A stretch of DNA of 64,000 bases from an uncultured Clostridia bacterium (GCA_944388045.1 CALXHG010000009.1:857-64856), one strand, 5' to 3'; shown: positions 216-35,442, counted from the first letter of the stretch. Program-made: numbers and translations. The notes: a model not told the origin generated them from the sequence alone.

Positions 216-341
216 AAATTTTACAAAGTAAAATTTGTGTGCATCCGTTTGAGCGAAGCTCTTTTCTAGTATAGGAAAAGCTTGAATTTTATTTTCACTT
301 TGAATTGCGTAACTTAAAGTTTCATATTGTTTCCTATACTA

Positions 342-368
342 GAAAAAAATCTCTGAATTATTCAGAGA
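342..368 (-). terminator. Rho-independent terminator of the transglycosylase gene
   Basis: 8-bp stem TCTCTGAA/TTCAGAGA (350-357/361-368), 3-nt loop containing the stop codon, followed on the minus strand by TTTTTTT. Confidence 0.7.
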
Positions 369-1122
369 CTTTTTCTGTTTGATTTACTTTTTCTACAACT
401 GCATTTGATTCTTGTAATATTTCATTTTTTTCTTCTTCTGTAATGTACTCATATTTTACCATTTTATCTAAAACTTGATTTTGCCTTTGTTGGGCTAAAT
501 CTAAATGGTCTGTTGGGCAATATGCTGATGGAGCATTTGGTATTCCTGCAAGCATACTTGACTCATTTCTGTTCATATCTTTTGGCTCTTTGCCATAATA
601 TCCTATAGATGCATCTTTTACACAATAATATCCATCACCAAAATAACTTGTATTTAGATATAACTCAAAAATAGTATCTTTATCTAAATTTTTTTCTAAT
701 TCAAATGCCATAAATATCTCTGCAATTTTTCTAAGAGCTGATTTTTCTTGAGTAAAATATATATTTTTAGCTAATTGTTGTGTTATTGTACTTCCACCTT
801 CTCTAAGTTCCCAATATCTTATATTAACTAATACAGCTCTTGCTAATGCAATTGGGTCAACAGCACCATGATTATAAAATCTTCTATCCTCAACTGCAAT
901 AACTGCATTTTTGTAAAACTCTGGCAAATCTTCTAATTTTGTATAACTTTCATTTGATTGTATTTCTGCAACTTTATCTTTAATACTCATTTCATTAATT
1001 GCATTTTTGTATATATTATAACCCTTATTTAAAAGTATACTTATTCCGGTTAATGCAACTAATAAAATTAATAATATAATTATTAAAAATATTCTTTTTA
1101 TTATTTTCATAATAAATAACAT
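358..1122 (-). CDS. Monofunctional peptidoglycan glycosyltransferase (GT51 family), membrane anchored
   Basis: GT51 motifs EDRRFYNHGAVDP and GGSTITQQLAKN; N-terminal TM helix. Likely true start is the ATG at 1110 (MKIIKR...), since the ATG at 1122 lies inside the AAGGAATG Shine-Dalgarno. Confidence 0.85.
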   Translation of the reverse strand: MLFIMKIIKRIFLIIILLILLVALTGISILLNKGYNIYKNAINEMSIKDKVAEIQSNESYTKLEDLPEFYKNAVIAVEDRRFYNHGAVDPIALARAVLVNIRYWELREGGSTITQQLAKNIYFTQEKSALRKIAEIFMAFELEKNLDKDTIFELYLNTSYFGDGYYCVKDASIGYYGKEPKDMNRNESSMLAGIPNAPSAYCPTDHLDLAQQRQNQVLDKMVKYEYITEEEKNEILQESNAVVEKVNQTEKVSE

Positions 1123-1261
1123 TCCTTTCTTGTTTTAAAGGCTCACATACTTTCATCCTATTTTTATTGTACTACATTTTATTCGACAAATAAATACCTT
1201 TTTCTTAATTTTTTCTTATTTTATTGCAGTTACTTTTTTATACATCAAAAAAAGTAAATTT

Positions 1262-1313
1262 AGTACCGGTTCTATTTTTTCCCATTTTTGATAGCAAATT
1301 ATAGAACCGGTAC
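1262..1313. repeat. Paired GTRCCGGTTCT-T6 motif (family H2), inverted pair
   Basis: GTACCGGTTCTATTTTTT ... TAGAACCGGTAC; the same 18-mer recurs as direct pairs at 22639-22694 and 31499-31552. Confidence 0.65.
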
Positions 1314-1414
1314 ATTTTTACCCATCAAAAAAGAAACATAAGCTGACCTCACAACTTATGCTTCTCTTGTACTCAGCTACAATTGTAAACTGAGGTTGGA
1401 GTGATTTTTATAGG

Positions 1415-2353
1415 TTACCATACCTTATAGAAGATATGGTCACCAAATTCCACTTTAACTTGGATGCTATTTCTCATCTCTATTTCCGAATTACCACAGT
1501 AATCCGGATTATAGAAGTACAGCGCACCCCCCCGAGCATATTCGTCGGGATTAAGACCCTTACTAATTGCTTCTTGACGAAGCAATTCTTCAGTCGGGTC
1601 TTCTCCTGCAAGAGCACGCTCTGCTGCTTCCACACAGCTTTCTGGCACCTCAGAAAATTCAACTGGCTTGCCAAAAGCCATTACAGTTCCTCCTTTTACA
1701 GAGGAAAACTGTCCTTTCTGAGAGATAACCTCTTGTATCGTGTTCGGAAAACTTTCCGATTCAACACGATTCAGAATTGTTGCAGCCACTGCAAGTTGCT
1801 GTTCCAATGTTTGGTTACCCGCTTCTGCGTAGGTAACCTTCGCCAGCAATTGCAAATCCTCACTTGCAATTTTGGAAATTGTTGTACTCAAAGAATTTTC
1901 TTCTGAAAATTCTTCTTCAACAACAGGAGATGAAGTCTCAGCTTGGCTTTCGCCAATCAATTTTTTTGTTTCTTCACTTGCCTTTTCTCTTTCCATTTGC
2001 CGAGCAATTTCTTGCTCAACAATTTGGTTGTACCTATCTTCACTTTGAATATTTGCCTTACTAGTCTCCTTAATCTCCTCTTGCCTAACCATTTTTATGG
2101 CTTCAGCATTGTTGTCCAAAATGTCGATGCTTGATTGATAACAAACACACATTGTGTTTGCGAAAAACGCCATTGTCGCAATAGCACTTGCCAAACTTAC
2201 TCGTAAGTTCCGAGTTTCATCATGGCAATTCGCAGTTGCTACATTCTTTCCTTTCTTCTGAATGTAACACACAGCATTATCGTACTCTCTTTTAATCATA
2301 TGGATTGTTTTCACTCCTTTCAAATTATCCATATCTATATAATTATACAACAT
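1415..2353 (-). CDS. SleB/Hydrolase_2-type cell wall hydrolase, GC-anomalous (foreign-looking) gene
   Basis: C-terminal YAEAGNQ...AVAATILNRVESESFPNTIQEVISQKGQFSSV resembles the SleB-like cell wall hydrolase domain; clearly higher G+C than flanks; uses in-frame CGG Arg codons. Confidence 0.7.
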   Translation of the reverse strand: MLYNYIDMDNLKGVKTIHMIKREYDNAVCYIQKKGKNVATANCHDETRNLRVSLASAIATMAFFANTMCVCYQSSIDILDNNAEAIKMVRQEEIKETSKANIQSEDRYNQIVEQEIARQMEREKASEETKKLIGESQAETSSPVVEEEFSEENSLSTTISKIASEDLQLLAKVTYAEAGNQTLEQQLAVAATILNRVESESFPNTIQEVISQKGQFSSVKGGTVMAFGKPVEFSEVPESCVEAAERALAGEDPTEELLRQEAISKGLNPDEYARGGALYFYNPDYCGNSEIEMRNSIQVKVEFGDHIFYKVW

Positions 2354-2375
2354 TTTTCCTTTTTTTTCAAGTCTA

Positions 2376-3602
2376 CTATTGTTTTCTTCCTACATAATAA
2401 TTCTTTTTTCCTCTTTTTATAATTATATAATAATTATCTATAAACATATCTTCTGTAATTGTTATATTGCTATCTGTTACTTTATTTCCATTTATTGATA
2501 TGGCACCACTAGTAATAAACTCTCTTGCTTCTCTTTTACTATTTGCAGCACCTATATTTATAACCATGTCGACTATACTTATATTTGAATTAACATCTTT
2601 CATATCTTGCTCATCAAATAAATCTGTTATATCTTGTTTTGTTAAATCATCAAATTTATTGTTAAATAAACTTTGAGCTAATTTTTCTGCTCTATCATAT
2701 TCTTCTTTTCCATGTAAAAATGTTATAATTTCTCTAGCTAAAGCTTTATGAGCTTCTCTTAATTCTGGATGTTCACTATTCTTTTTTTCATATTCTTCTA
2801 TTTCTTCTTTTGAAAGGAATGTATAGATTTTTAAATAATCTATAACCATAGAGTCTTCAACATTTACAAAGAATTGGTATAGTTTATAGCTTGAAGTTTT
2901 ATTTTTATCTAACCATAAAGCATTTCCTTCACTTTTTCCAAATTTCTTTCCTTGAGAATCTGTTACAAGTGGCATTGTAAATCCATATACTTCATCCCCT
3001 GTTGACTTTCTAATTAAGTCAATTCCTGCTGTAATGTTTCCCCATTGATCTGACCCTGCACATTGTAAATCTACACCTTTATGTTCATGTAAATATTTGA
3101 AGTCTAATGCTTGTAATATCATATATGAAAATTCTGTATATGTTATTCCTGATTCTAATCTTCTTCTTATTATGTCTTTATCTAACATATAGTTTATATT
3201 AAAAAATTTTCCATAATCTCTTAAAAAATCTATTACATTTATGTCTTTATACCAGTCATTATTATTTACAACCTCAAATCCAAAGATTTTTTCTACTTGT
3301 TTTTTTAAACTTTCAAAATTGCTTTTTACTTGCTCTTTACTTATCATTGCTCTTTCTGTTGTAGGTCTTGGATCTCCTATCATTCCTGTTCCTCCACCTA
3401 CTAATAATATTGGATGATGTCCTGCTTCTTTTAGTCTTTTTGATATTAAAAAACTTGATAAATGACCTACATGTAAACTGTCTGCAGTAGGGTCTGTTCC
3501 TATATAAAATGTTAATCCACCTTTGTTTAATTTTTCTTCTAATTCTGGACTTGATATGTCTTTTATTAGTCCTCTCCATTTTAAATCTTCTACTACTGTC
3601 AT
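2376..3602 (-). CDS. tyrS: Tyrosine--tRNA ligase
   Basis: Class I HIGH (HVGHL) and KMSKS-like (KFGKS) motifs, C-terminal S4-like domain, 408 aa. Confidence 0.95.
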   Translation of the reverse strand: MTVVEDLKWRGLIKDISSPELEEKLNKGGLTFYIGTDPTADSLHVGHLSSFLISKRLKEAGHHPILLVGGGTGMIGDPRPTTERAMISKEQVKSNFESLKKQVEKIFGFEVVNNNDWYKDINVIDFLRDYGKFFNINYMLDKDIIRRRLESGITYTEFSYMILQALDFKYLHEHKGVDLQCAGSDQWGNITAGIDLIRKSTGDEVYGFTMPLVTDSQGKKFGKSEGNALWLDKNKTSSYKLYQFFVNVEDSMVIDYLKIYTFLSKEEIEEYEKKNSEHPELREAHKALAREIITFLHGKEEYDRAEKLAQSLFNNKFDDLTKQDITDLFDEQDMKDVNSNISIVDMVINIGAANSKREAREFITSGAISINGNKVTDSNITITEDMFIDNYYIIIKRGKKNYYVGRKQ

Positions 3603-3977
3603 TCTTCTATCATTCCTTTCTTTTTATTGTTTTGAATTTTTTGATTTCATTATTTTTTATTTTTTGTTTTTTTGATTTTTTTATTTTAAGATTTTACTTT
3701 TTTAAATTTATATAATTTAGTTTTATTTCTTATGTTCTATATTTTAACTTAAAATAGTTCAAATTTCAAGTTTTTTCTAAATTTATATTATAAATAATTA
3801 CATATTTTCCTCTTTTAGCTATGCTTATAAAAATTTCTTACTGAACTGTAACCATATTTTTATTAAAAGTTATTATCTATAATTTTAAAGGGATAATAGC
3901 TGACTTTTTAAGATATTTTATACATCTATAGCTTTTTAAAAATGAGTAAATTTTAAAAAAGATAGTAATTGTATATA

Positions 3978-4070
3978 GAACAAATAAGAAAATCTTTGAT
4001 TTTCTTTAATTTGTTCTCGCCCGATTTGAGTTTTCGACTGTAAGGAGAAAATCTCAAAGGGCTAGCGATT
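3978..4070 (+). repeat. Dispersed structured element, family H3 (GTTTTCGRCTRTAAGGAGAAAATCTCAAAGKGCTAGCRATT)
   Basis: Hairpin GAACAAATAAGAAAATC/GATTTTCTTTAATTTGTTC followed by a 41-nt block that recurs with 5 mismatches at 16583-16634. Confidence 0.6.
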
Positions 4071-4079
4071 GTAGCTTTT

Positions 4080-4160
4080 TATACAATAGGAAAGTATAAC
4101 TTTCCTATTGTATAAAACCAGAAAGGAGGTTGAGGAATTTCTTCCTCACCTCCTCTCTGG
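4080..4160 (-). terminator. Double hairpin terminator downstream of the 4195..4587 ORF
   Basis: ~19-bp stem CCAGAAAGGAGGTTGAGGAA/TTCCTCACCTCCTCTCTGG (4118-4160) followed on minus strand by TTTTAT, then a perfect 15-bp hairpin at 4080-4114. Confidence 0.65.
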
Positions 4161-4194
4161 CTTGTATAAGTTTGTTCCTTTTCAGGACTTTATC

Positions 4195-4587
4195 TTAGGT
4201 TTTGGGAACGTACTTAAGCAGATACGTTTTTTGGGGATTTAACGGCCTATGGTAGGTTGCAATCCCATACCTGTCAAACACGTTGTTCAGGACTGACTCC
4301 ACTCCAACGAGGTCGTCATATAAATCTTGGGGATAAATTGTATATGCAATCTTGCACATACGCAAAATCCCGTCACTGGTTTTCATGCAAGTGCCATCAT
4401 CTCTCGGAGTGTAACCTTCAAGATAATTCCGGCACCAGCCAACCTTCGCAAGAGTATGCAAGTCATTGGCAGAGAAAATCACCTGCACATCATGTTCTTT
4501 GATTTTCTCAAAGAGAACTGAAACGAAATTGCTTTCGTTCACAATCAGCTCTTCTACTGAGTTAACTCTCGAGCCAAAAATTCCCAT
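4195..4587 (-). CDS. Hypothetical protein, GC-anomalous islet gene 1
   Basis: 130-aa ORF with GGAGG RBS, own extended -10 promoter (TGATATAAT) and own terminator; no family recognised. Confidence 0.55.
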   Translation of the reverse strand: MGIFGSRVNSVEELIVNESNFVSVLFEKIKEHDVQVIFSANDLHTLAKVGWCRNYLEGYTPRDDGTCMKTSDGILRMCKIAYTIYPQDLYDDLVGVESVLNNVFDRYGIATYHRPLNPQKTYLLKYVPKT

Positions 4588-4827
4588 AATTTACCTCCTT
4601 ATAATTGCTGAGGGGTGAATATACGTCAAGGAGTACTTGACTCCAAATACTATTATATTATATCACTATTCTTCAAAAAAATCTACTTTTTTTTGAAATT
4701 TGGTGTTTTACCTTAATTAAAATAATAAATTCCAGTATGAAAGCAATAAGACAGGTCAGTACTCAGAAATTACTTCTTTGTATTGACCTGTCTTTAGCTT
4801 TAGAATTAGAACTCTAAAAAAACTTAG

Positions 4828-5169
4828 TTAGACATCAGTCTTGATGTAAGCAACGCAAGCAATTTGTTTAAGGCTATTGGGAATTTCGTACAAAATGTTC
4901 TCACCTTGCTTGATTCTCATCAAGCACCCAATGTCGTTTACATGCCTCCACGAGATGGAAAGATGCTGGAAGAAAGAAGTATACTCTCCATTGTAGCAGT
5001 AATTCTTCTTCACATTTTTGCTTTTCATCAAGTCCTCAACATTGAAGAGGAGAAGCTTGTTCTGCCCATTTGCAGCAAGACTGCAGAAAGCAGCTTCACA
5101 CTTTTCGATGGGCATCCGAAAGAAATTCGAGTGCCATTCCAGTTTTGTCATAACGTGCTGGTTGTCCAT
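4828..5169 (-). CDS. Hypothetical protein, GC-anomalous islet gene 2
   Basis: 113-aa ORF, higher G+C than backbone, followed by hairpin AAGACAGGTCA...TGACCTGTCTT (4749-4795); no family recognised. Confidence 0.5.
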   Translation of the reverse strand: MDNQHVMTKLEWHSNFFRMPIEKCEAAFCSLAANGQNKLLLFNVEDLMKSKNVKKNYCYNGEYTSFFQHLSISWRHVNDIGCLMRIKQGENILYEIPNSLKQIACVAYIKTDV

Positions 5170-5225
5170 AATAGAACCTCCTGTTCAATCTGCTTGGTCA
5201 AAAATCTTTTGAATTTATGACCAAT

Positions 5226-5618
5226 TTAATTGGTAGCTATTTCAAGAAACAAAATGCGTTTAGCATTTGTCTCTTTTTCCAAAGAATAGAATTGCTTGTT
5301 TTTATACCAGATGCTAATAATCTGGCACTTAGCTTCTTTCTCATTTTTTTTGTCATCCAAAATGACGACATACTGTAAAGAACAATCCTGTTCTAACTTT
5401 GCTTGATGAATTATATCCCCATGACTGTTTTTTAAATTTGTTGTTGTTATATTCTCTGCCACCTCCTTAATAAGACTCAAACGAGTTATAACAACACTCT
5501 CCCGCAATCCAGGGAGAGTTAACATAGAAAGCACTGTTCTAACATTGCCTTCAACTGCTGATATTTTTCTTCCATCTTTAACAGAATAAAGCCTAAGTCT
5601 TTTCATATGCTCCTCCAA
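5226..5618 (-). CDS. Hypothetical protein, GC-anomalous islet gene 3
   Basis: 130-aa ORF, intermediate G+C; no family recognised. Confidence 0.5.
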   Translation of the reverse strand: MEEHMKRLRLYSVKDGRKISAVEGNVRTVLSMLTLPGLRESVVITRLSLIKEVAENITTTNLKNSHGDIIHQAKLEQDCSLQYVVILDDKKNEKEAKCQIISIWYKNKQFYSLEKETNAKRILFLEIATN

Positions 5619-5686
5619 ACATAATTCAAAAAAAAGCTTATGTTTGATGGACTTTCCATCAAAATCATAAGCTATTATATCACAAT

Positions 5687-6856
5687 TTAAAATGCTTGTC
5701 TATATAATTCGACAAAATCTTCTTTTGTTACTTCTCTTGGGTTTCCTGGTTTGCATGGATCTTGCATTGCTTTTTCTGCTAAAAGTTCAAAATCCTCTTC
5801 TCTTGCCCCAACATCTCTAACTCTTTGTGTTATTCCTACAGATTTAGATAATTCAGAAATCATCCATACAAATGTATTAATTACATCTTGGTCATTTAGA
5901 TGTTCTGCGTCAGGTCTACCAATCTCACATAATATTTCTCTAAATCTTTGTGCTGTTGCATGGTCTGCTCCATTAAATCTCATAACTGTTGGCAATAATA
6001 TTGCATTTGCAATTCCGTGTGGAGTATCATAAACAGCTCCTAATTGATGTGCCATAGAATGTACAATTCCTAATCCAACATTAGAAAATCCCATTCCTGC
6101 TATATATTGTGCTAATCCCATCATTTCTATTGCTTCTTCATCTTTTTCATTTACTGCTGATGGTAAATATTTGAAGATTAATTTTATTGCTTTCATATGG
6201 AACATATCTGACATTGTATTATGTGCTTTTGTAATATATCCCTCAACAGCATGTGTTAATGCATCCATTCCTGTTGCAGCAGCTAGTGATTTTGGCATAG
6301 ATGCCATTAATTCTGAATCTACTATTGCTAATATTGGAATGTCATGTGGATCTACACATACCATTTTTATTTCTCTTTCTTCATCTGTTATAACATAATT
6401 TATTGTTACTTCTGCTGCTGTTCCTGCTGTTGTTGGTAATGCTATTAATGGCATACCTCTATTTATTGTATTTGAAGCTCCATTTAGTGATACAATATCA
6501 CTTCTTTCTGGATTTGTCATAACTATAGATACACCTTTTGCAGTATCTATACTTGAACCTCCACCTACAGCAACTATTACATCAGCTCCTGAATTTCTAC
6601 ATGCTTCTACTCCATCTGTTACATTTTTTATTGATGGATTTGGTTTTACATCAGAATATACTTCATATGGTATTTCTGCTCTTTGTAAAACATCTGTAAC
6701 TTTATTTATTAGTCCACATTCTACTAATGACTTATCTGTTACAACAAAAGCTTTTTTAAATCCTCTGCTCTTAATTTCTCCTGGTAATTCTTCTCTTGCA
6801 CCTTTTCCAAAATATGATGTTTCATTTAAAGTAAATTTAACTGACATATTTTTCAC
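5687..6856 (-). CDS. fucO: Iron-containing alcohol dehydrogenase, lactaldehyde reductase (FucO)-like
   Basis: Long collinear similarity to FucO as I remember it (LNETSYFGKGA, PTTAGTAAEVTINYVITDEE, VDPHDIP, GMDALTHAVEGYIT, GFSNVGLGIVHSMAH). Confidence 0.8.
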   Translation of the reverse strand: MKNMSVKFTLNETSYFGKGAREELPGEIKSRGFKKAFVVTDKSLVECGLINKVTDVLQRAEIPYEVYSDVKPNPSIKNVTDGVEACRNSGADVIVAVGGGSSIDTAKGVSIVMTNPERSDIVSLNGASNTINRGMPLIALPTTAGTAAEVTINYVITDEEREIKMVCVDPHDIPILAIVDSELMASMPKSLAAATGMDALTHAVEGYITKAHNTMSDMFHMKAIKLIFKYLPSAVNEKDEEAIEMMGLAQYIAGMGFSNVGLGIVHSMAHQLGAVYDTPHGIANAILLPTVMRFNGADHATAQRFREILCEIGRPDAEHLNDQDVINTFVWMISELSKSVGITQRVRDVGAREEDFELLAEKAMQDPCKPGNPREVTKEDFVELYRQAF

Positions 6857-7069
6857 TCCTTCTTTTGAATTTTTTACTGCCTTTATATTGGCAAATTTAT
6901 ATAAATTAAATTTTGCAATTAAATCTCAAATAAATATTACTTATTATGATTATTTAAATTATAATACTCTTGAATTCTTTAGAAATTCTGAATATTACTT
7001 AACAATTTTAGTAATATTTAATTATTCTGATTAATTGCTCATTTTAAATTATATACATTTTTTTATGTT

Positions 7070-7711
7070 TTAGTCAATAGAAATTTCCATATATTCTTCT
7101 GGAATATCAAATAAAGATTTATCAATATCTGTTGAAATTTCTATTTTTAATGTTTCTTCTTCCATTTGACTAAAAATTGTTTTTATATATACTAGTTTAT
7201 TGTCATTATCAAAATAAAATCTTGTTTTTACTTGACTTTCGTCATCATTTAAAACATTTGTATCTGTAAACATTGTTGTTCCTTGATATTCTTCGTAATA
7301 ATATTTTTTTCCTCTAATTTTTTCCTCACCAGTTGTATACTCTCTATTAACAACATCTGCAAGCCAACTTTCAACAACATTTACATCTATATTTGTATTA
7401 TTATATATATAATATTCTTCTTTTTCATGTGTAATATATGTTGTTGTATTGTCTTTTATTATTGTTGTGGTATGTGTTCCAGATGTATAATTATCAATTA
7501 CAGCATTATTTCCATCTTTTACCACAATTGTTTTATTATTCGTGTCTTTTTCTTTTTGAAATTGATATGATGTAATACCATTTAGTTGATTATATACTTC
7601 AGAAAGTAAATGAATTTCTGTTTTTTTATTATTTTTAACAATTATTATTGCTATTATAATTGCTATAATTAAAATTATTGGAATTACTATTCTTATTATT
7701 CTTTTTTTCAT
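7070..7711 (-). CDS. Membrane-anchored hypothetical protein
   Basis: N-terminal TM helix, Asn/Thr-rich extracytoplasmic part; similar architecture to 11308..11919. Confidence 0.55.
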   Translation of the reverse strand: MKKRIIRIVIPIILIIAIIIAIIIVKNNKKTEIHLLSEVYNQLNGITSYQFQKEKDTNNKTIVVKDGNNAVIDNYTSGTHTTTIIKDNTTTYITHEKEEYYIYNNTNIDVNVVESWLADVVNREYTTGEEKIRGKKYYYEEYQGTTMFTDTNVLNDDESQVKTRFYFDNDNKLVYIKTIFSQMEEETLKIEISTDIDKSLFDIPEEYMEISID

Positions 7712-7734
7712 TTGACTTCACTTTCCTTTTCATG

Positions 7735-7797
7735 TTGGGGTCGGTCCCTTTTTCTGTTGGGGTCGGTCCCTTTTCTCGTTGGGGTCGGTCCCTTTTT
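7735..7797 (-). repeat. 22-bp tandem repeat array, 3 units (core GGGACCGACCCC on minus strand)
   Basis: TTGGGGTCGGTCCCTTTTTCTG / TTGGGGTCGGTCCCTTTTCTCG / TTGGGGTCGGTCCCTTTTT; sits between def stop and the start of 7070..7711. Confidence 0.9.
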
Positions 7798-7815
7798 ATA
7801 CCTTTTTGTTCTGAT

Positions 7816-8301
7816 TTATTGTTCTGTATTTTCATTTTGAACATATTCTAATGTTCCTGGAATCATTCTATCTGTAAATACTACACCTTCTAAATGGTCA
7901 ACCTCATGTGCAATTGCTTGTGCTAGCAAGTCTTTGGCTTTTAATGTAAATTTCTTTCCATCTCTATCTAAGGCTTCTACAGTTAATTCTTTTGGCCTCA
8001 CAACTTTTGCATATTGGTTTGGAAAACTTAAACATCCTTCTTCTACTTCATGTTCTCCTTTTGTTTTTGTTATCTTAGGATTTATAAAAATTCTAGCTCC
8101 TTCTCCGTCTTCTATGTCTATGACTACTACTCTTTTTAGTACTCCTACTTGTACTGCTGATAATCCAACTCCATTATATTTGTACATTGTTTCTATCATA
8201 TCGTCTATTAATGTTTGTATTTTTTCGTCAATATTTTCTACTTCTCTAGATTTTTTTCTTAGGATTTCATCGTTTTCTAGTCTCATTGTTCTTATTGCCA
8301 T
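7816..8301 (-). CDS. def: Peptide deformylase
   Basis: Motifs GVGLSAVQVG, EGCLSFP, HEVDHLEG. Confidence 0.95.
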   Translation of the reverse strand: MAIRTMRLENDEILRKKSREVENIDEKIQTLIDDMIETMYKYNGVGLSAVQVGVLKRVVVIDIEDGEGARIFINPKITKTKGEHEVEEGCLSFPNQYAKVVRPKELTVEALDRDGKKFTLKAKDLLAQAIAHEVDHLEGVVFTDRMIPGTLEYVQNENTEQ

Positions 8302-8327
8302 TATTTATTGCTCCTTGTCTAATTTTA

Positions 8328-18010: not shown

Positions 18011-18517
18011 TTATTCCTCTTTTTTGTTTTTTCTTTTGGTTTGTTTTTTTATTGGTTCATCTTTTACAATTTCTTTTATATCACTTAAATTATCTAATTC
18101 TTTCTTCTTCTCTCTAGTGTAAATTAATATGTTTTTAATTATATAATAAGATATAAATAAACATAAACCAGAAAAAATATATGTAGTATTATCTATATTA
18201 AAAACTCTTGGAATATATAATATTAATAAAGTAAATATAGATAAAACTAAAAATTCTATCCCATTTAAAGCTAAAGTGTCATTATCATTTTTATATGCTT
18301 TTTCAAAAATTAATATTGTAAGTATTAAAAATAAAAAACTTGTAAATTTTATGTATATTAAAAATATGTCTGGTTTCATGTATTGTTCTATTATATTAAA
18401 AAATATAAAATACATTGTTACTAATGTGATATATATTAAGTTTAAAACTATGTTTTGAGACATTATTTCTTTTATTTTTTTTAAAATATTTATTTTTTCT
18501 TTAGCATTTTCTTCCAA
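18011..18517 (-). CDS. Hypothetical multi-pass membrane protein
   Basis: 168 aa with about four hydrophobic helices and a Lys-rich C-terminus. Confidence 0.55.
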   Translation of the reverse strand: MEENAKEKINILKKIKEIMSQNIVLNLIYITLVTMYFIFFNIIEQYMKPDIFLIYIKFTSFLFLILTILIFEKAYKNDNDTLALNGIEFLVLSIFTLLILYIPRVFNIDNTTYIFSGLCLFISYYIIKNILIYTREKKKELDNLSDIKEIVKDEPIKKQTKRKNKKEE

Positions 18518-18611
18518 TTTTGGTTCCTCTTTCTTTTTATATATCTAATATAATACCACCTTTTTGCATATTTATCAAGTATTTTTGAATAATTATTTTT
18601 TATCATTGTTG

Positions 18612-18816
18612 TTGGGTGGGTCTTGTTGGGGTCGGTCCCAAAACAAAAAAGGGACCGACCCCGACACAAAAAGGGACCGACCCCAACAACAAAAGGGACC
18701 GACCCCGACAACAAAAGGGACCGACCCCAACAACAAAAGGGACCGACCCCGACACAAAAAGGGACCGACCCCAAAACAAAAAGGGACCGACCCCAACAAC
18801 AAAAGGGACCGACCCC
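18612..18816 (+). repeat. Hairpin-capped 22-bp tandem repeat array, 1 inverted + 8 direct units (core GGGACCGACCCC)
   Basis: Direct cores start at 18651, 18673, 18695, 18717, 18739, 18761, 18783 and 18805 (exact period 22); inverted unit at 18626-18639; the array ends 12 nt from the addA stop. Confidence 0.95.
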
Positions 18817-18827
18817 AGTAGCCTATT

Positions 18828-21800
18828 TCAAGCTAGATTGACATCAATTTCTTTTTCTAAATATGTTGAATATATATATGCTTTATCTACTTTTCTTTCT
18901 AAAGCTGATTCTAATGCATTTTTATATAATTCTAATTGTGTTTTATATTTATCAATTAATATTTTTTCTTGTTTATTTGCAACATAATCTGTTTTAAAAT
19001 CTACTAATATTAGTTTTCCTTTTTCATTTATATAATACAAGTCTATAATACCTTGAACAAGTATTTTTTCTTCTACATTTTTATTATATATTTCTTTTGC
19101 AGGAATATTTATATAAAAAGGCTTTTCTCTTTCCACAACATTTGCTTTAGTCATCTCTTTCCAAATATTTGATTTGGTAAATTGTAGTATTTTATTTAAA
19201 TTAATAGCATATGCTTCTTGTTGTGTGATTATTTTTTTAGCAACTAGTTTTTCAACTAATTCTTTTATTCCTTCTAAATTATATTCTTGTTTTTTTACAT
19301 CCAATTTTTGCATACATAAATGTATTAATGTTCCCTTTTCAGCATTTGTTATTTTTACATCTTCGTCTGATTGTAAAAATTTAGGTTTTGGCAACTCTTC
19401 ACATTCATTAATATTTTCTAATGTTTTTGGATTCTGATTAATTCTAATATTATTTTCTATAGCATTATTATAAGCACATTTATAATTATTTAACTTATCA
19501 ATATCATTCTCTATAATATCACTATATTGTCTATTAATATTATTTATTTTGCTCTCTAAACTCATTTGTTTTATTTGTGTTACTGATGTTTTTGTTGGTA
19601 TTATTGTAGATTCTATAAATGGATATATATAATTTAATTTTTCTATAATCTGTTTTTCTAATTTTTCTTCTTTAGGATATTCATCTAATTTTTTTATTAT
19701 ATTTTTAGATATGTCTTCTTCATCTTCTTTTTTATTTTCTTTTTCATACATATTTATTATTTCATCTTTTTTATAATAATTCCATGTAGAAAGTTCATTC
19801 ATTTTTTCTTTATTGTAATTGTATATTAACATTAGCCATTCTAGATATGATTTTGCATTTTGTAATAACATTACACTTAAATTTTCATATTTTTCGACAT
19901 TTTCCATCATTTTATCTATTTTTTCTTTTTTAGTAAATCCTGTTATAATTATCTTCTCTTTTGCTCTTGTTAATGCAACATATAAAACTCTCATTTCTTC
20001 TGATAAAGTTTCTATTTTTATTTTATTTCTTATTGCCCTTTTTGATAAAGTATCATATCTAATTTGCAAATCATAATCTATATATTTTACACCAATTCCT
20101 AATTCTGGGTGTAATAATATTTTTTGATTTAAATCTTGCAAATTAAATTGTTTTCCAGTATTAGCTAAAATAACAACAGGAAATTCTAGCCCCTTACTTT
20201 TATGTATACTCATAATTCTTATAACATCATCATTTTCTCCAATTACTCTTGCAGAATCCATATCTTTACTACTTGTTTTAATTTTTTCTATATAATTTAT
20301 GAAATTATATAATCCTTTAAAACTAATATTTTCACATTGTTTTGCTATTTCAAATAACATTTTTAAATTGGCTTGTCTTAATTCTCCATTTTTCATAAGT
20401 CCAACATAATTAAAATATCCTGTGTCATTATAAATTTTCCAAATAAATTCTGGTAAGCTTAAATATTCTTGTTCTTTTCTCCACATTTCTAATTTATTCA
20501 AAAAGTCTTCAATTTTTAAACGTAATTCTTCATCTACATTTATTTCGGATTTTAATATTGTTGTATAAAAATTATCATATTTATCACATAGACGAATTTC
20601 TACTAAATCATTATCTGTAAAGCCACCTATCATACTTCTCATTGTTGCCACTAGCGGAATTTCTTGTAATGGATTATCTATAATTTTTAGTAAATTCATA
20701 ATTGTTTGAATTTCTAAACTTTCTAAATATTCTGATGAAGAATCACTAAAAACAGGCATTCCTAATTTTATAATTTCTTTTTCAAATATTGGTGCAGATG
20801 TTTTTGTTGACCTTAATAAAATAACTATATCTTTATATTTTATATCTCTTTGAATTTTGTTTTTTGCATCATAAACTTGAAATTTATTTTCTATTAATTG
20901 TTTTATTTTATTTGCAACAAACTGTGCTTCTACTTCTATATCTTCTTTTCTTTCTACTTCTTCTTTAAATTCTTCATCATCCACATCTTCTTGAAGTGTC
21001 TCAACTTCTAATTCTTCTGGATTTTGTGTTTTTTCATCATTTGTTTCAATTTGTATAATGTCTATTTCTGCTTTTAAATCTTCTCCTGTGTCTTTATAAT
21101 CTGCTCCTAAATTCAAATATTCTTCTTCTGTGTAATTTAATTCTCCTAACTCCTCACTCATTATTTTTGAAAAGATTAAATTAGAAAAATCTAAGACTTC
21201 TCTTCTGCTTCTAAAATTTTTGAATAATTGAATTTTTAAATCATCTTTTTCTGTTTTTTGTTGCTTTAATTTGTATTTTTTATATTTATCTAAAAATAAA
21301 TCTGGTCTTGCTTGTCTAAATTTATAAATACTTTGTTTTACATCTCCAACCATGAAAATATTATTTCCTTTAGAAATTGATGTTAATATATATTCTTGCA
21401 CTAAATTACTATCTTGATATTCATCTATTGCTATTTCTTCAAATTTTTGTTGATATTTTTTTGCAATTTCTGTTGGATTGCCATTTTCGTCTATTAAAAT
21501 TTTTAAAGCAAAGTGTTCTATATCACTAAAATCTACTATATTTTTCTCTTTTTTCTTTTTAGAAAATTGGCTCGAAAACTCTAATATAACATTTTCTAGT
21601 TTGTTTAGTATTTTATACATATGAATTATATCTTTAAAACTTTCTTGTGAATTCATAACTAATACTTTATCTGCAACAGCTTCTAATGATTTTATGACTT
21701 TTGACCTTACTTTTTGAGCACTTATTTTATCTTCTGTTTTTATTTTTGAGTCCACTAGCCATTTTCCAAAATTTATTGAACTATATATTTCATATGCTTT

Positions 21801-22613
21801 ATCCCATGTATCTAAATTAGCTTGTAATAATTCTAATTGTTGTAAATTTCCTCTTAAAAGTTCATAACTTTTTTTCAATTCATCAATTTTTGATAAATTT
21901 TCAACTTCTGGTTTTAATTGATATATTCCATCATCAACAATTTCTTTTATTTGATTTAACAATATATTTCCCCAAGTTGTTTTGGAAAAATCTTGATTTA
22001 TATCTTCTGGGAAATTAAACATTTCTATTTTTTCATGTAACCATTTTTCTGGATATGGATTGCTTTGAATATATTTGTAAATTGTTAATATCAAATCTTT
22101 TAATGGTGTATCATCTCTATATTCTGTATATGTATTTACTAATTTTAAGAAATCTTCATCATTATTTTCATATTTTTCTTCAAACAAATCTTCTAATACA
22201 TCTTGTTGTAATATTTCTATTTCTGTCGTATCTCCTATTCTAAAATTGTTTGACAAATCAATTTCAAAGAAATTATTTCTTACTACATCTAAACAAAAAG
22301 AGTCTATTGTACATATACTAGATTTATTTAATAAAGTTACTTGTCTTTGTAGTCGTTCATCATCTGGTTTTTCATCAATTTTTTTATATATTGCTTTTAA
22401 AACTCTTTCTCTCATTTCTGATGCTGCTGCATTTGTAAAAGTTACTACTAAAAGTCTATCTATATCTATTTTTTCATTTATTATTTTATTTATTATTCTT
22501 TCAACTAATACTGCTGTTTTTCCACTTCCTGCAGCAGCTGCAACCAATATATTATTTCCTTTTTCATATATTGCTTGTTCTTGCTCTTTAGTCCATTTTA
22601 CTTCTTCAGCCAT
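18828..22613 (-). CDS. addA: ATP-dependent helicase/nuclease subunit A (AddA/RexA type)
   Basis: UvrD-type helicase N-terminus (AAAGSGKTAVLVERI), 1261 aa, C-terminal PD-(D/E)XK nuclease motif GIIDLYY...LVDFKTDY. Confidence 0.88.
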   Translation of the reverse strand: MAEEVKWTKEQEQAIYEKGNNILVAAAAGSGKTAVLVERIINKIINEKIDIDRLLVVTFTNAAASEMRERVLKAIYKKIDEKPDDERLQRQVTLLNKSSICTIDSFCLDVVRNNFFEIDLSNNFRIGDTTEIEILQQDVLEDLFEEKYENNDEDFLKLVNTYTEYRDDTPLKDLILTIYKYIQSNPYPEKWLHEKIEMFNFPEDINQDFSKTTWGNILLNQIKEIVDDGIYQLKPEVENLSKIDELKKSYELLRGNLQQLELLQANLDTWDKAYEIYSSINFGKWLVDSKIKTEDKISAQKVRSKVIKSLEAVADKVLVMNSQESFKDIIHMYKILNKLENVILEFSSQFSKKKKEKNIVDFSDIEHFALKILIDENGNPTEIAKKYQQKFEEIAIDEYQDSNLVQEYILTSISKGNNIFMVGDVKQSIYKFRQARPDLFLDKYKKYKLKQQKTEKDDLKIQLFKNFRSRREVLDFSNLIFSKIMSEELGELNYTEEEYLNLGADYKDTGEDLKAEIDIIQIETNDEKTQNPEELEVETLQEDVDDEEFKEEVERKEDIEVEAQFVANKIKQLIENKFQVYDAKNKIQRDIKYKDIVILLRSTKTSAPIFEKEIIKLGMPVFSDSSSEYLESLEIQTIMNLLKIIDNPLQEIPLVATMRSMIGGFTDNDLVEIRLCDKYDNFYTTILKSEINVDEELRLKIEDFLNKLEMWRKEQEYLSLPEFIWKIYNDTGYFNYVGLMKNGELRQANLKMLFEIAKQCENISFKGLYNFINYIEKIKTSSKDMDSARVIGENDDVIRIMSIHKSKGLEFPVVILANTGKQFNLQDLNQKILLHPELGIGVKYIDYDLQIRYDTLSKRAIRNKIKIETLSEEMRVLYVALTRAKEKIIITGFTKKEKIDKMMENVEKYENLSVMLLQNAKSYLEWLMLIYNYNKEKMNELSTWNYYKKDEIINMYEKENKKEDEEDISKNIIKKLDEYPKEEKLEKQIIEKLNYIYPFIESTIIPTKTSVTQIKQMSLESKINNINRQYSDIIENDIDKLNNYKCAYNNAIENNIRINQNPKTLENINECEELPKPKFLQSDEDVKITNAEKGTLIHLCMQKLDVKKQEYNLEGIKELVEKLVAKKIITQQEAYAINLNKILQFTKSNIWKEMTKANVVEREKPFYINIPAKEIYNKNVEEKILVQGIIDLYYINEKGKLILVDFKTDYVANKQEKILIDKYKTQLELYKNALESALERKVDKAYIYSTYLEKEIDVNLA

Positions 22614-22638
22614 AAATATTCTCCTTTTGGTAAATTTT

Positions 22639-22694
22639 GTGCCGGTTCTCTTTTTTACTTTTTGTTGGCAAAAAAGTACCGGTTCTCTTTTTTT
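22639..22694 (+). repeat. Family H2 motif, direct pair
   Basis: GTGCCGGTTCTCTTTTTT (22639) and GTACCGGTTCTCTTTTTTT (22676), immediately upstream of the addA start. Confidence 0.65.
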
Positions 22695-22800
22695 CTATTT
22701 TGATTGATGTATAATTCCAAATATTAATCAAAATAGTATCAATCATATTTTAATAAATTATTTACAAAAAATCAAATATTTTTTATGTTATATTCATACT

Positions 22801-23192
22801 GTGGTCGGTCCCTTTTTGTGTCGGGGTCGGTCCTCTTTTTGGTTGGGGTCGGTCCTAAATCAAACCAATATAAATTGTTTTTTATACCTTGTGTGTCGCA
22901 ACCTACAAAAGAATTTCAATAAGTAGGTTGCTCCAAATCGCATTCGCTACGCTCATTTGGTCGCTTACGCGGTATTACAAAACAATTTATATTGGTTTGA
23001 TTTAGGACCGACCCCAACCAAAAAGAGGACCGACCCCGACAACAAAAGGGACCGACCCCGACACAAAAAGGGACCGACCCCGACAACAAAAGGGACCGAC
23101 CCCGACAACAAAAGGGACCGACCCCGACAACAAAAGGGACCGACCCCAACACCAAAAGGGACCGACCCCAACACCAAAAGGGACCGACCCCA
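22801..23192. repeat. Palindromic composite of the 22-bp repeat family: 3 inverted units + unique core + 9 direct units
   Basis: ~85-bp inverted arms (22801-22886 vs 22971-23060) flank an 84-bp GC-richer core with its own hairpin (22898-22931); direct cores run every 22 bp from 23004 to 23180. Confidence 0.95.
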
Positions 23193-23261
23193 GATAAAAA
23201 CAGCATTTATGTCGCAAAAAGGAGCAGAGAACAACTATAGTCATTCTCTGCTCCTTTCGCC

Positions 23262-23615
23262 TTAGGTCTCGTCGTTATTAATCAATTTCCGCAGATCCAA
23301 GACCCCATTGTGGGGCTTAATATCTGCCTTAACCAAATCGTGGGATTTTTCATCCCACACGAGAACCTCTGCGTCACCATCTGCCAGAATCAGTTTACGG
23401 ATTTTTCCGTTGCGAGCATCAAGCCCACAGGCATAACCTGCTGTCTTCTGGCTGTCAGGCTCCCCCTTGACAATAATAATATCATCGGTGCCGTCACCAC
23501 TCAACCGCATGCCGGTACCACCCCAACGAAGAATCGCCGCTAATTTTCGAACGTCTTCCCTGTCAAGGATAATAACTACACTTTTCATACTTTTTTCCTC
23601 CTTGTCATTCGACAA
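23262..23615 (-). CDS. Hypothetical protein, GC-anomalous single-gene islet
   Basis: 117-aa ORF (probably from MKSVVIILD), much higher G+C than backbone, in-frame CGG codon, GGAGG RBS, consensus promoter upstream. Confidence 0.55.
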   Translation of the reverse strand: MSNDKEEKSMKSVVIILDREDVRKLAAILRWGGTGMRLSGDGTDDIIIVKGEPDSQKTAGYACGLDARNGKIRKLILADGDAEVLVWDEKSHDLVKADIKPHNGVLDLRKLINNDET

Positions 23616-23661
23616 ATAATGTGTGTGTAGCTTTCAGCTTTGGTCTAAACCAAACTATTTA

Positions 23662-23690
23662 ATTATATACCATTTTTTGAAATTTGTCAA
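23662..23690 (-). promoter_or_regulatory. Consensus sigma-A type promoter for 23262..23615
   Basis: Minus strand TTGACA - 17 nt - TATAAT (-35 at 23685-23690, -10 at 23662-23667). Confidence 0.65.
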
Positions 23691-23724
23691 TATTTTACAA
23701 AAATAATTTGTACATAAGTAATAG

Positions 23725-29517: not shown

Positions 29518-29688
29518 TGTTGGGGTCGGTCCCTTTTTGTGTTAGGGTCGGTCCCAAAACAAAAAAGGGACCGACCCTAACACAAAAAGGGACCGACCCT
29601 AACACAAAAAGGGACCGACCCCAACAACAAAAGGGACCGACCCTAACACAAAAAGGGACCGACCCCAACACAAAAAGGGACCGACCCC
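29518..29688 (+). repeat. Hairpin-capped 22-bp tandem repeat array, 2 inverted + 6 direct units
   Basis: Inverted units 29520-29555, loop AAAACAAAAAA, direct cores at 29567, 29589, 29611, 29633, 29655 and 29677; ends CCCCAGTA 9 nt from the stop of 29697..30347. Confidence 0.95.
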
Positions 29689-33417: not shown

Positions 33418-33479
33418 CAGGGTCGGTCCCTTTTTCTATTGGGGTCGGTCCCTTTTTCTATTGGGGTCGGTCCCTTTTT
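33418..33479 (-). repeat. 22-bp tandem repeat array, 3 units (core on minus strand)
   Basis: CAGGGTCGGTCCCTTTTTCTA / TTGGGGTCGGTCCCTTTTTCTA / TTGGGGTCGGTCCCTTTTT; begins 19 nt upstream of the M50 protease start codon. Confidence 0.9.
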
Positions 33480-34233: not shown

Positions 34234-35442
34234 TCATTTATTAAAAAAATCATCTATTTTCTCTATTTCTTTCTCTTTAAATTCATTAAACACATCTGTA
34301 TATGTATTTAATGTTACTTGTATGTCTTTATGCCCTAATATTTTTTGAAGAACTACTGGACTAACTCCATTTTCTATACATCTAGTTGCAAATGTATGTC
34401 TTAGCATATGTGTATTTACTCTACTTTTTGTCATATCAAATTCATATACTTTTTTTATTTTTCTTCCACTTTTTATGCTTGATCTTTTTTTATATACTCT
34501 AATATCTGCATTTTTACATAGTTTTTGAAATCTAGCATTAAAATTAGTAGCATGTATAAAACTTCCATTTTTCAAAAATAGAAATCCCTTTTTCTTATCT
34601 ATTTTATATTCAATTAATTTATCGTACAGTACATTTAATATTGGCACATCTCTCATCCCTGCATAAGTTTTTGTTGTTTTTTCTAATAAAATTCTTCCTT
34701 TATCTACATGACTAAGTGTCTTTCTTACATATATTTTTTTATTTTCAAAATCTAGATCTTCCCTTTTTAGTGCCAAAATTTCACTTATTCTCATTCCTGT
34801 ATAAATAGCTATATAAAATACAATAGTATAATCATCATATCCTTTATCTAACTCATTAATAAATCTTTCTTGTTCTTTTATAGTCAATGCATCTACTTTT
34901 TTAGTTGCTTTATTAGACTTTGGTTTCATTAAATATCCTTTTAGTTCAAACGGATTTTTTTCTACAATATTCCTAATCCTCGCTTCATTGAATGCTCCTT
35001 GTAATTGTTGCCATACTTTGGTTATTACAGATTGTGAATATGAAACTAATACTTGGCTTTGAGAATTTATTATACTTCTTGTAACATTTTGAATTGGAAT
35101 ATTAGCATAGGGTAAAAGCTTTCTCATTATATCGATGCTTTCTCCTATTCTTATGTATGATGCTCTTTTTATAGAATTAGTTTTATATTTTAGTTCTCTT
35201 ATTTCTTCAGCTATATCTACTATTGATAAAGTATTGCCAACATCTTTCCCTGTTTGTTTTTCTCTTTGTAATAAATCTAATTTTTCTTTTACTTCTTTTC
35301 TTGTATCTCCATAAAATGTTTTTCTTATTTGTTTTCCATCTGAATTAACTCCTAAAGTAATTTGTCCTACCCATTTTTTCAATTTTTCTCTATAAAATAT
35401 TGTTCCTTCTCCATTTCCTCTTTTACTTAAATTTCTTCCCAT
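34234..35442 (-). CDS. int: Tyrosine-type site-specific integrase
   Basis: N-terminal arm-binding type region (GNGEGTIFYRE..WVGQITLG), catalytic C-terminus HMLRHTFATR...LGHKDIQVTLNTYTDV. Confidence 0.9.
   Translation of the reverse strand: MGRNLSKRGNGEGTIFYREKLKKWVGQITLGVNSDGKQIRKTFYGDTRKEVKEKLDLLQREKQTGKDVGNTLSIVDIAEEIRELKYKTNSIKRASYIRIGESIDIMRKLLPYANIPIQNVTRSIINSQSQVLVSYSQSVITKVWQQLQGAFNEARIRNIVEKNPFELKGYLMKPKSNKATKKVDALTIKEQERFINELDKGYDDYTIVFYIAIYTGMRISEILALKREDLDFENKKIYVRKTLSHVDKGRILLEKTTKTYAGMRDVPILNVLYDKLIEYKIDKKKGFLFLKNGSFIHATNFNARFQKLCKNADIRVYKKRSSIKSGRKIKKVYEFDMTKSRVNTHMLRHTFATRCIENGVSPVVLQKILGHKDIQVTLNTYTDVFNEFKEKEIEKIDDFFNK

Follow-up and report, generated by a model that had tools for sequence, protein, structure and literature searches.

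What is the tandem repeat that abuts the stop codon of an addA-like gene in an uncultured Clostridia bacterium, and what does it do there? The stretch analysed, called the window here, is 64,000 nucleotides long in its entirety (GCA_944388045.1, CALXHG010000009.1:857-64856), and the repeat array in question occupies positions 18612–18816. It is very probably a REP/REPIN-type repeat cluster (REP, repetitive extragenic palindromic sequence) of TIRYT-like character. A fuller reading, in which this identification is combined with proposed seeding by a Y1 enzyme, growth in situ and a polar effect on transcripts, is given a probability of about 0.7.

The array consists of two arms of unequal length. 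The long arm (18651–18816, plus strand) is made up of eight head-to-tail 22-bp units, each with the core GGGACCGACCCC followed by a 10-nt tail; the cores start at 18651, 18673, 18695, 18717, 18739, 18761, 18783 and 18805, and Tandem Repeats Finder (TRF) reports a period of 22, 8.2 copies and 0% indels. The short arm is a single inverted unit, TTGGGGTCGGTCCC (18626–18639, minus strand; core at 18628–18639), with a decayed outer unit, TTGGGTGGGTC (18612–18622, minus strand), lying 22 bp in register with it. The arms meet at a flip centre, the 11-nt tail or loop AAAACAAAAAA (18640–18650), an identical copy of which is found at 29556–29566. The original prediction, made from the same DNA, had described eight exact-period units and one inverted unit beside addA, and every one of its coordinates and all four tail types were reproduced. 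The upstream gene (18828–22613, minus strand) encodes an AddA-like helicase-nuclease with the Pfam domains UvrD-helicase, UvrD_C and PDDEXK_1. Its TGA stop (18828–18830) is separated from the last core by 11 nt, and not by 12 as first given, and the supposedly special junction at this end, CCCCAGTA, is an ordinary tail start (AGTA...) that occurs inside arrays too. On the minus strand, which is the addA strand, each unit of the long arm reads GGGGUCGGUCCC plus a U-rich tail. This orientation is called T-sense below (in array formulae, T is a unit that the flanking genes read in T-sense, and A one that they read in the reverse sense); viewed from the addA transcript, the short arm is in A-sense.

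The unit belongs to a family. At a GC content of 26.6%, the window contains 35 cores (GGGACCGACCCC with at most one mismatch), while 100 shuffles give an expectation of 0.00. They form five loci over 26 kb of the window's first 34 kb, each in an intergenic region (p = 1.9e-4 for a coding fraction of 82%). The neighbours are housekeeping genes, and a domain scan finds no transposase among the window genes. When species-representative genomes, one for each species, were scanned for a pair of cores at 22-bp spacing, 24 stretches were returned from a single metagenome-assembled genome (MAG), that of uncultured Clostridia bacterium BRZ_ER__bin71, whose identity to the window in syntenic parts is ~97%; two further matches in the same scan are both high-GC. 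A metagenome scan added one low-GC relative only, its other matches being high-GC 22-bp tandem repeats with the 12-mer, and neither arrays nor the central module described below were found in viral contigs. It had been predicted that the core would recur on both strands and would not be equally frequent in coding sequence, and this is borne out by the 35 cores and five intergenic loci of the window and by dozens more loci in the close-relative MAG.

The 209 units of the window and the 24 MAG loci all lie outside credible open reading frames (ORFs). Their consensus is AAAAGGGACCGACCCCARYANM, i.e. AAAA-GGGACCGACCCC-A-R-Y-A-N-M, with about 18 of the 22 positions conserved and four variable. In the tail, the consensus of which is A-R-Y-A-N-M-AAAA, positions 3–6 vary. 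The tails had been described as A/C-only; this holds for the 18651–18816 array and fails across the 209 units, where T and G are present. Tails are mostly uniform inside a locus and differ from locus to locus. Spacing is rigid, at 22 bp, or 23 bp over an orientation flip, and the unit count ranges from 2 to 14, with tandem arrays of up to 14 units. The order of the arms is equally strict: 17 of 17 mixed arrays run (−)n and then (+)m, and the reverse order is never seen. Each mixed locus is thus one large palindrome, and a transcript that enters from either side meets T-sense units first. The arms mirror one another down to locus-specific variants, among them a CCCT variant of the core at 29.5 kb and, at 22.8/23.0 kb, the tail AACCAAAAAGA.

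The strongest clue to the nature of the family is a gene in the MAG. At locus L023 (L numbers denote sequences from other assemblies), a 256-aa ORF is bracketed by three (−) units 77 nt upstream and two (+) units 8 nt downstream. It scores 44.9 bits with Pfam Y1_Tnp (cutoff 23), and among NCBIfam models the best match is that of the REP-associated tyrosine transposase, or RAYT (REP_Tyr_transpos, 51 bits), while the IS200 transposase model scores 16 bits. The HUH (NHxH) and YxHRNP motifs, including the catalytic tyrosine, are invariant among the protein's relatives. The protein carries ~130 extra C-terminal residues that end in a segment possibly resembling a helix-turn-helix (HTH), a weak assignment for which Pfam gives one HTH_7 match (E = 0.07) in 16 members. 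A tblastn search of 572 kb of fetched DNA located a single Y1 copy in each of L023 and L051–L054 and no others. The gene sits in the same place in the MAG and in the orthologue of 75% identity, between a pyruvate:ferredoxin oxidoreductase subunit gene and murC. An independent sample (L065) has a Y1 gene with the same unit bracketing, on a contig that terminates inside the array. Many of the 445 Y1 homologues are found on ~1-kb contigs, as expected of a gene bracketed by assembly-breaking repeats.

The core changes together with the transposase. The orthologues in L051 (75% identity), L052 (61%), L053 (55%) and L054 (58%) are flanked by the cores GGGGTCGGTTCY with a 22-bp period, GGTGCCGGTCC, GGGGTCGGTTCC with a ~34-bp period, and GGGACCWGGTCCC, respectively. 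In all cases the cores bracket the gene as T...A. Five orthologues of 55–100% identity have five different cores. The L053 core is itself dispersed, with 20 intergenic copies of the same polarity in 19.8 kb. The units of sister species, unlike the one here, possess an outer stem. Sister species found via PriA have cores akin to this one in similar positions, with periods of 43 and 34 bp; a variant core, GTGCCGGTTCTC, persists as a single relic on the outer edge of many arrays in the window's species. A single-copy Y1 gene flanked by the lineage-specific repeat that it is thought to disperse is the signature of REP–RAYT systems (PMC5581495; PMC3116915). The repeat, which the original prediction did not recognise as belonging to any family, is therefore not an orphan. 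Of the three roles proposed there, internally expanded MITEs (miniature inverted-repeat transposable elements) came closest, in that the units are RAYT-like, Y1-associated, non-autonomous repeats expanded in 22-bp steps.

The arrays change by whole units between strains. Copy numbers were compared in independent metagenome contigs that encode exactly the neighbouring proteins. The addA-site array has 4, 8, 10 or 11 units among assemblies, differing in 22-bp steps. It is unchanged in assemblies at least 99.9% identical over the aligned segment, including L032, L033 and L034; in a strain of 99.4% identity it has eight units with other tails and two core point mutations. L036 has ten units, L040 has four, and L043 has the structure T8A. 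In L046 and in the MAG, a central module, [M], is found at the flip centre of the addA-site array. The eleven-unit array of L042 (2012–2266) has ruvB in place of addA upstream, and its first units carry the typical tails of another locus; by its composition it is a chimeric array at a synteny breakpoint. The composite element upstream of addA is formed in the window by a left arm of three units (22801–22856, minus strand), the central module (22857–23003) and a right arm of nine units (23004–23191, plus strand), i.e. T9[M]A3; in L040 and L043 the module is missing and the structures are T6A and T9A, and the nine-unit arm has 8–10 units in other strains. The three units that occupy the spacer between def and the next gene (7737–7792, minus strand; A-sense for the flanking genes, 25 nt from the next start) number 2, 3, 4 or 6 among strains. 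The relA-like locus consists in the window of two inverted and six direct units (29522–29688), 8 nt past the stop of a gene with a RelA/SpoT domain (Pfam), and occurs as the alleles T6A2, T5A2, T4A2, T3A, T2A2 and T2A. Every allele of the addA and relA-like loci retains at least two T units facing the upstream gene.

The arrays are thus real and the central module is polymorphic. Arrays also mark places where gene order changes: in L060–L062, the match to the window breaks off precisely where the A arm of the relA-like locus lies, just after 3215, and L037 (1–55) has no array and a different upstream sequence. Together with the chimeric array of L042, this suggests recombination between dispersed arrays. 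A separate indel of ~360 bp between priA and def (window 8301–8864 versus L040 18707–18910), with a small ORF of 57–71 aa, is not linked to the 22-bp units.

The polarity of the arrays may matter for the RNA. A core in T-sense is self-complementary only by way of G·U (G·T) pairs, with 8 G-C and 4 G·U in the stem. In computed folds, two adjacent T units form a 12-bp stem with the 10-nt tail as the loop (−15.8 kcal/mol), followed by UUUUUG (UUUUUGUUUU); the first such hairpin begins 11 nt past the addA stop. An A-sense core has A·C mismatches at the four wobble positions. The cap hairpin formed by an inverted unit and any unit of the other arm is perfectly paired and more stable (−28.6 kcal/mol), and no U-tract follows it. 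The proposal of stacked mini-terminators or stabilisers of the 3′ untranslated region is plausible in an altered form, in which two units pair through G·U into a hairpin followed by U4-5; the single unit is weak, and the cap hairpin lacks a U-tract. At most loci the gap between stop and array is 5–37 nt and contains no other hairpin. For arrays with at least two T units toward the upstream gene, more than 100 nt separate the array from the next start in 10 of the 11 cases; for those with none, the distance is 20–60 nt in all four independent cases (Fisher p = 0.0037 for orientation versus operon context). Judged by sequence context, arrays without T units sit at operon-internal or leader positions, and in L022 a canonical terminator is found upstream of one of them. 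At the addA site, the array is followed directly by a putative sigma-70-like promoter (TTGATA-17-TATTAT with a TG; 18550–18578, minus strand) serving a 168-aa gene (18011–18517, minus strand) that a Pfam scan assigns to no family. The sister species L050 is free of arrays over 22 kb; there, the array's slot is taken by a canonical terminator, GGCAGGGATTC-AAAA-GAATCCCTGC with a U-tract, that directly precedes the promoter of this same gene, and the promoter is conserved between L050 and the window.

These observations can be assembled into the following mechanism. A founding T/A doublet would have been put in place when the Y1 enzyme acted on DNA hairpins in single-stranded form, as for REPINs. 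The array would then have grown and shrunk in situ through replication slippage or unequal recombination; amplification of this kind explains the locus-specific tails, while the perfect symmetry of the arms suggests selection for the hairpin or copying between arms. Eight T units might provide up to four consecutive factor-independent terminators, or hairpins that protect the 3′ end, and so insulate the promoter of the next gene. The A sense would be unable to form T–T stems, and this orientation could be tolerated inside operons. On the modelled hairpins, the array may also serve as a transcription stop signal for the upstream gene; taken by itself, a genuine terminator or 3′-end role for the array at 18612–18816 is a tentative proposition, with odds slightly below even. 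A bolder version, in which the Y1-HTH protein and its repeats have been domesticated into genome-wide polar transcription boundaries, with T arms terminating via G·U pairing, A arms acting as transparent leaders and the unit number (2–14) setting read-through, is speculative and quite improbable.

A number of results weigh against this reading. The Y1 transposase gene was not found in the window itself, only in close relatives, and the 51 bits of its RAYT match are below the equivalog cutoff of that model, which is 80. The AlphaFold (AF2) model of the protein is poor (pLDDT of 54), with only the last ~65 residues confidently helical; IS200/IS608/ISDra2 and the RAYT structure 4ER8 occupy the top ranks in Foldseek, none of them significantly, and searches of the PDB with the Y1 sequence and with the family profile gave no meaningful match. 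Unlike classical REP units, those of this family carry no GTAG or CGTC tag in the consensus of 209, and a single unit, the computed fold of which (−4.2 kcal/mol) is no better than that of shuffles, makes no convincing palindrome. No empty-site allele or target duplication was found among the strains compared at the addA and relA-like sites, and copy numbers all come from short-read metagenome assemblies, in which long arrays may be miscounted. For the terminator part, the two-unit hairpin has a loop of 10 nt, a stem one-third of which is G·U, and a U-tract interrupted by G. A simple terminator scan does not flag the arrays, because its loop limit is 8. The orientation statistics rest on ~15 loci picked by the search pattern and on crude ORF calls. 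The nine-unit arm at 23004–23191 is already preceded by a canonical hairpin and U-tract terminator (23204–23256, minus strand; −31 kcal/mol), placed between the stop of the upstream gene and the arm, and is hence redundant, and L004, with 12 T units, has only ~52 nt to the next start.

Much of the same evidence can be read as that of a selfish repeat, dispersed by a RAYT and prone to slippage, with no function for the host, the orientation bias being left by the purging of insertions that terminate operons. Copy number is indeed highly variable between near-identical strains, arrays lie at synteny breakpoints and can be chimeric, the family turns over rapidly between sister species, and the redundancy of the nine-unit arm fits as well. 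This explanation still needs a polar effect of T-sense units on transcripts, however, and differs only in whether the effect is used. That it is used is suggested by the addA and relA-like loci, where the array is the sole terminator-like element before the next promoter and where the minimum of two T units is kept in every allele, and by the canonical terminator that stands in the same slot in L050. A repeat that is selfish and nothing else is considered rather unlikely. Alternatively, the array might work as DNA. A 12-mer placed every 22 bp, about two helical turns, would make a phased platform on which the HTH-like C-terminal domain of the Y1 protein, or some other DNA-binding protein of the lineage, could sit, and might serve chromosome organisation or replication-fork targeting and not act via RNA. 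The rigid period, the invariant core and the variable tail positions 3–6 would all suit such a platform, as would the confidently helical end of the ~130-residue extension, and Y1 proteins of subclass 2.1 are known to have DnaA-C/HTH-like extensions (PMC6006769). Against this stand the weakness of the HTH_7 match and the sister species, which keep the core at periods of 34–44 bp, so that 22-bp phasing is not conserved. Moreover, binding alone leaves unexplained why orientation tracks operon context, as a double-stranded site is equally available both ways. This idea as a whole is improbable. The related suggestion of an iteron-like protein-binding array gains from the extra helical domain of the Y1 partner and loses from the position of the arrays, dispersed in housekeeping intergenic regions and not at an origin; plasmid-type iterons as such, which are direct repeats grouped at a replication origin beside their Rep gene, were rejected in view of the five loci dispersed over 26 kb between housekeeping genes and the dozens more in the MAG.

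Misassembly, a CRISPR-like array and coding sequence were considered as well, in view of the regular spacing, superficially CRISPR-like, and of the long ORFs that traverse the arrays in an ORF scan. The sequence is identical, however, in several independent assemblies, with the whole T8A structure recovered in L043, and the family occurs in many samples, which removes the possibility of misassembly raised with the original prediction. Its statement that the array has no unique spacers and no real coding potential stands: the 10-nt tails come from a small repertoire, and the period of 22 is not a multiple of 3. Coding was further rejected on account of single-unit indels between strains, which shift the frame, and CRISPR for want of unique spacers and of cas genes among the scanned neighbours. 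Refuted by the strain comparison, this group of explanations is given next to no weight.

The central module of the composite element is a ~148-bp segment in which perfect ~26-bp inverted stems surround a conserved core of ~97 nt. Copies are found in the window (22857–23003), L002 (~7740–7890), L003, L007, L009–L012, L024, L026 and L046. The ~97-nt core is 96.8% identical among 10 copies. The stems are 81% identical between copies, yet perfectly complementary within nine of the ten. The module is present or absent depending on strain at two sites, being absent upstream of addA in L040 and L043, and in about 7 of 9 loci it runs antisense to its neighbouring genes. No Rfam family matches it, it shows no similarity to the RAYT locus, and it is absent from the sister-species loci fetched. 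Within the bolder, improbable version given above, its core might be a structured RNA of a new type or else another element aimed at the array hairpins. A candidate outward promoter in the module (TTGTAG-16-TATAAA), picked out by eye, was dismissed as weak and unsupported. Rfam at its gathering threshold gives zero matches over the whole window, and at E ≤ 10 on 22.5–23.7 kb yields solely generic long-hairpin matches to plant miRNA precursors; a tRNA/tmRNA scan found none.

The last array of the window consists of three A-sense units (33419–33474, minus strand) located 20 nt 5′ of the start of an M50 peptidase gene (Pfam). It lies ~760 bp from a tyrosine integrase gene (34234–35442), after which dense minus-strand genes follow with PHROG matches to endolysin, DNA primase and, weakly, a terminase-like protein. 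The region from 34234 to ~60000 is probably, by its gene content, an integrated phage or mobile element, and none of the 35 cores is found in it.

Several other repeats and neighbours were recorded along the way. A second dispersed repeat of ~150 bp (window ~141–290), with matches of 91–94% identity in L001, L003, L007, L016, L018 and L022, contains a separate inverted repeat, GAACAATAGCGGGCTTT...AAAGTCCGCGTCATTGTTC, as well as pockets of higher GC, and bears no relation to the 22-bp units. Another unit type, GGG(C/A)AAWWTWGTGCCGGTTCTC-T6-CCC, occurs as a lone relic between the stop and the first unit in L005, L013, L015, L017, L019, L021 and L023; in the sister-species locus L048 (9827–10007), a core of this type is tandemly repeated with a 43-bp period. 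The L050 locus (293–7882) has sbcD and sbcC, the genes of the hairpin nuclease SbcCD, directly upstream of the addA-like gene, where the window (18828–23700) has the composite repeat and two small ORFs. The high-GC matches (53–75% GC), in L006 (7703–7780, Streptomyces), L020, L028, L029, L030 and L031, are arrays of 22-bp period with an identical GGGACCGACCCC and unrelated 10-nt linkers. The search pattern forced their spacing, so that these arrays may be due to chance; no Y1 gene was found in the stretches fetched. The array in L006 lies a few nt past a TGA that ends an apparent coding region.

The case is of interest in several respects. In uncultured Clostridia of low GC content, an abundant REP-like family is tied to a long Y1 protein with a putative HTH extension, and the core co-evolves with this protein across several species. 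If strand-specific termination by wobble pairing is true, the arrays would be naturally modular terminators whose strength is altered by slippage. As markers of synteny breakpoints that also break short-read assemblies, they are relevant to MAG quality in this clade. To our knowledge, REP/RAYT systems have been studied almost entirely in Proteobacteria, as GTAG-tagged palindromes and REPIN doublets. In the literature collection searched, no paper contains the 12-mer on either strand.

Among the systems described, REP/REPIN–RAYT, with its REPtrons and bacterial interspersed mosaic elements (BIMEs), is the obvious first comparison (Bertels & Rainey 2011, PMC3116915, and Bertels et al. 2017, PMC5581495; Nunvar 2010 and Ton-Hoang 2012 as cited therein). 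The likeness extends to a short GC-rich repeat that is extragenic and strongly over-represented, to a single-copy, vertically inherited Y1/HUH gene bracketed by inverted repeats, to a repeat sequence that co-varies with the transposase lineage, and to inverted doublets with symmetric (compensated) arms. Multi-unit clusters after stop codons, with proposed roles in termination and mRNA stabilisation, are shared too. The differences are those of form and host. In classical REPs the GTAG tag at the hairpin's foot marks where the RAYT cleaves; that enzyme binds and cuts single-stranded REP DNA and so mobilises REPINs. A REP is an imperfect palindrome of 20–40 bp, whereas the 22-bp unit of this family is, alone, no clear palindrome. 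BIMEs alternate REPs, while the arrays here are rigidly head-to-tail with one polarity flip, a distinct architecture. The REPIN-rich RAYT groups 2 and 3 are gammaproteobacterial and the host here is of a low-GC Clostridia lineage, and the Y1 protein is ~100 aa longer than a RAYT.

The TIRYT/TIRtron description (Di Nocera et al. 2013, PMC3733652) appears to fit better than that of a classical REP. Here again, the Y1 protein is RAYT-like and extended at its C-terminus, the inverted repeats on either side of its gene have no GTAG, and the flanking repeat is also a dispersed family of singles, dimers and clusters. The flanking consensus of TIRtrons, GGGG[AT][CG]A[CG], agrees with the start of the core, GGGGTCGG, at seven of eight positions and fully with the sister-species core of L049, GGGGACAG, taken by itself. 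TIRYTs have been equated with Y1 subclass 2.1 (Quentin et al. 2018, PMC6006769), the proteins of which are long and have C-terminal DnaA-C/HTH-like extensions (Bac_DnaA_C, HTH_23 or HTH_28). The same survey reports no REP-like sequences near subclass 2.1 genes, and published TIR families are described as moderately abundant; unlike these, the repeat of the window is very abundant (35 cores in the first 34 kb) and tandemly amplified. The present case would thus link proteins of the TIRYT/subclass 2.1 kind to a REP-like family.

Two further systems resemble the arrays in part. STAR of Staphylococcus aureus (Purves et al. 2012, PMC3532100) has a 14-bp consensus, T(G/A/T)TGTTG(G/T)GGCCC(C/A), with spacers of at least 40 bp. 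It is likewise a short GC-rich core in an AT-rich Firmicute genome, repeated directly in intergenic regions with local expansion and contraction, locus-specific spacers and species-specific locations. Its core TGTTG(G/T)GGCCC resembles TGTTGGGG-TCGGT-CCC, but the STAR consensus does not describe the repeat here, which has a 5-nt insertion in the core and 10-nt spacers; STAR has no known transposase partner, unlike the Y1-linked family. Intrinsic terminators and hairpin clusters (Gupta & Pal 2021, PMC8355165) also have a GC-rich stem and U-tract no more than a few tens of nt from a stop codon, with several adjacent hairpins; those of the arrays, known from computed folds, differ in being formed by two copies of a repeat, through G·U pairs and around a 10-nt loop.

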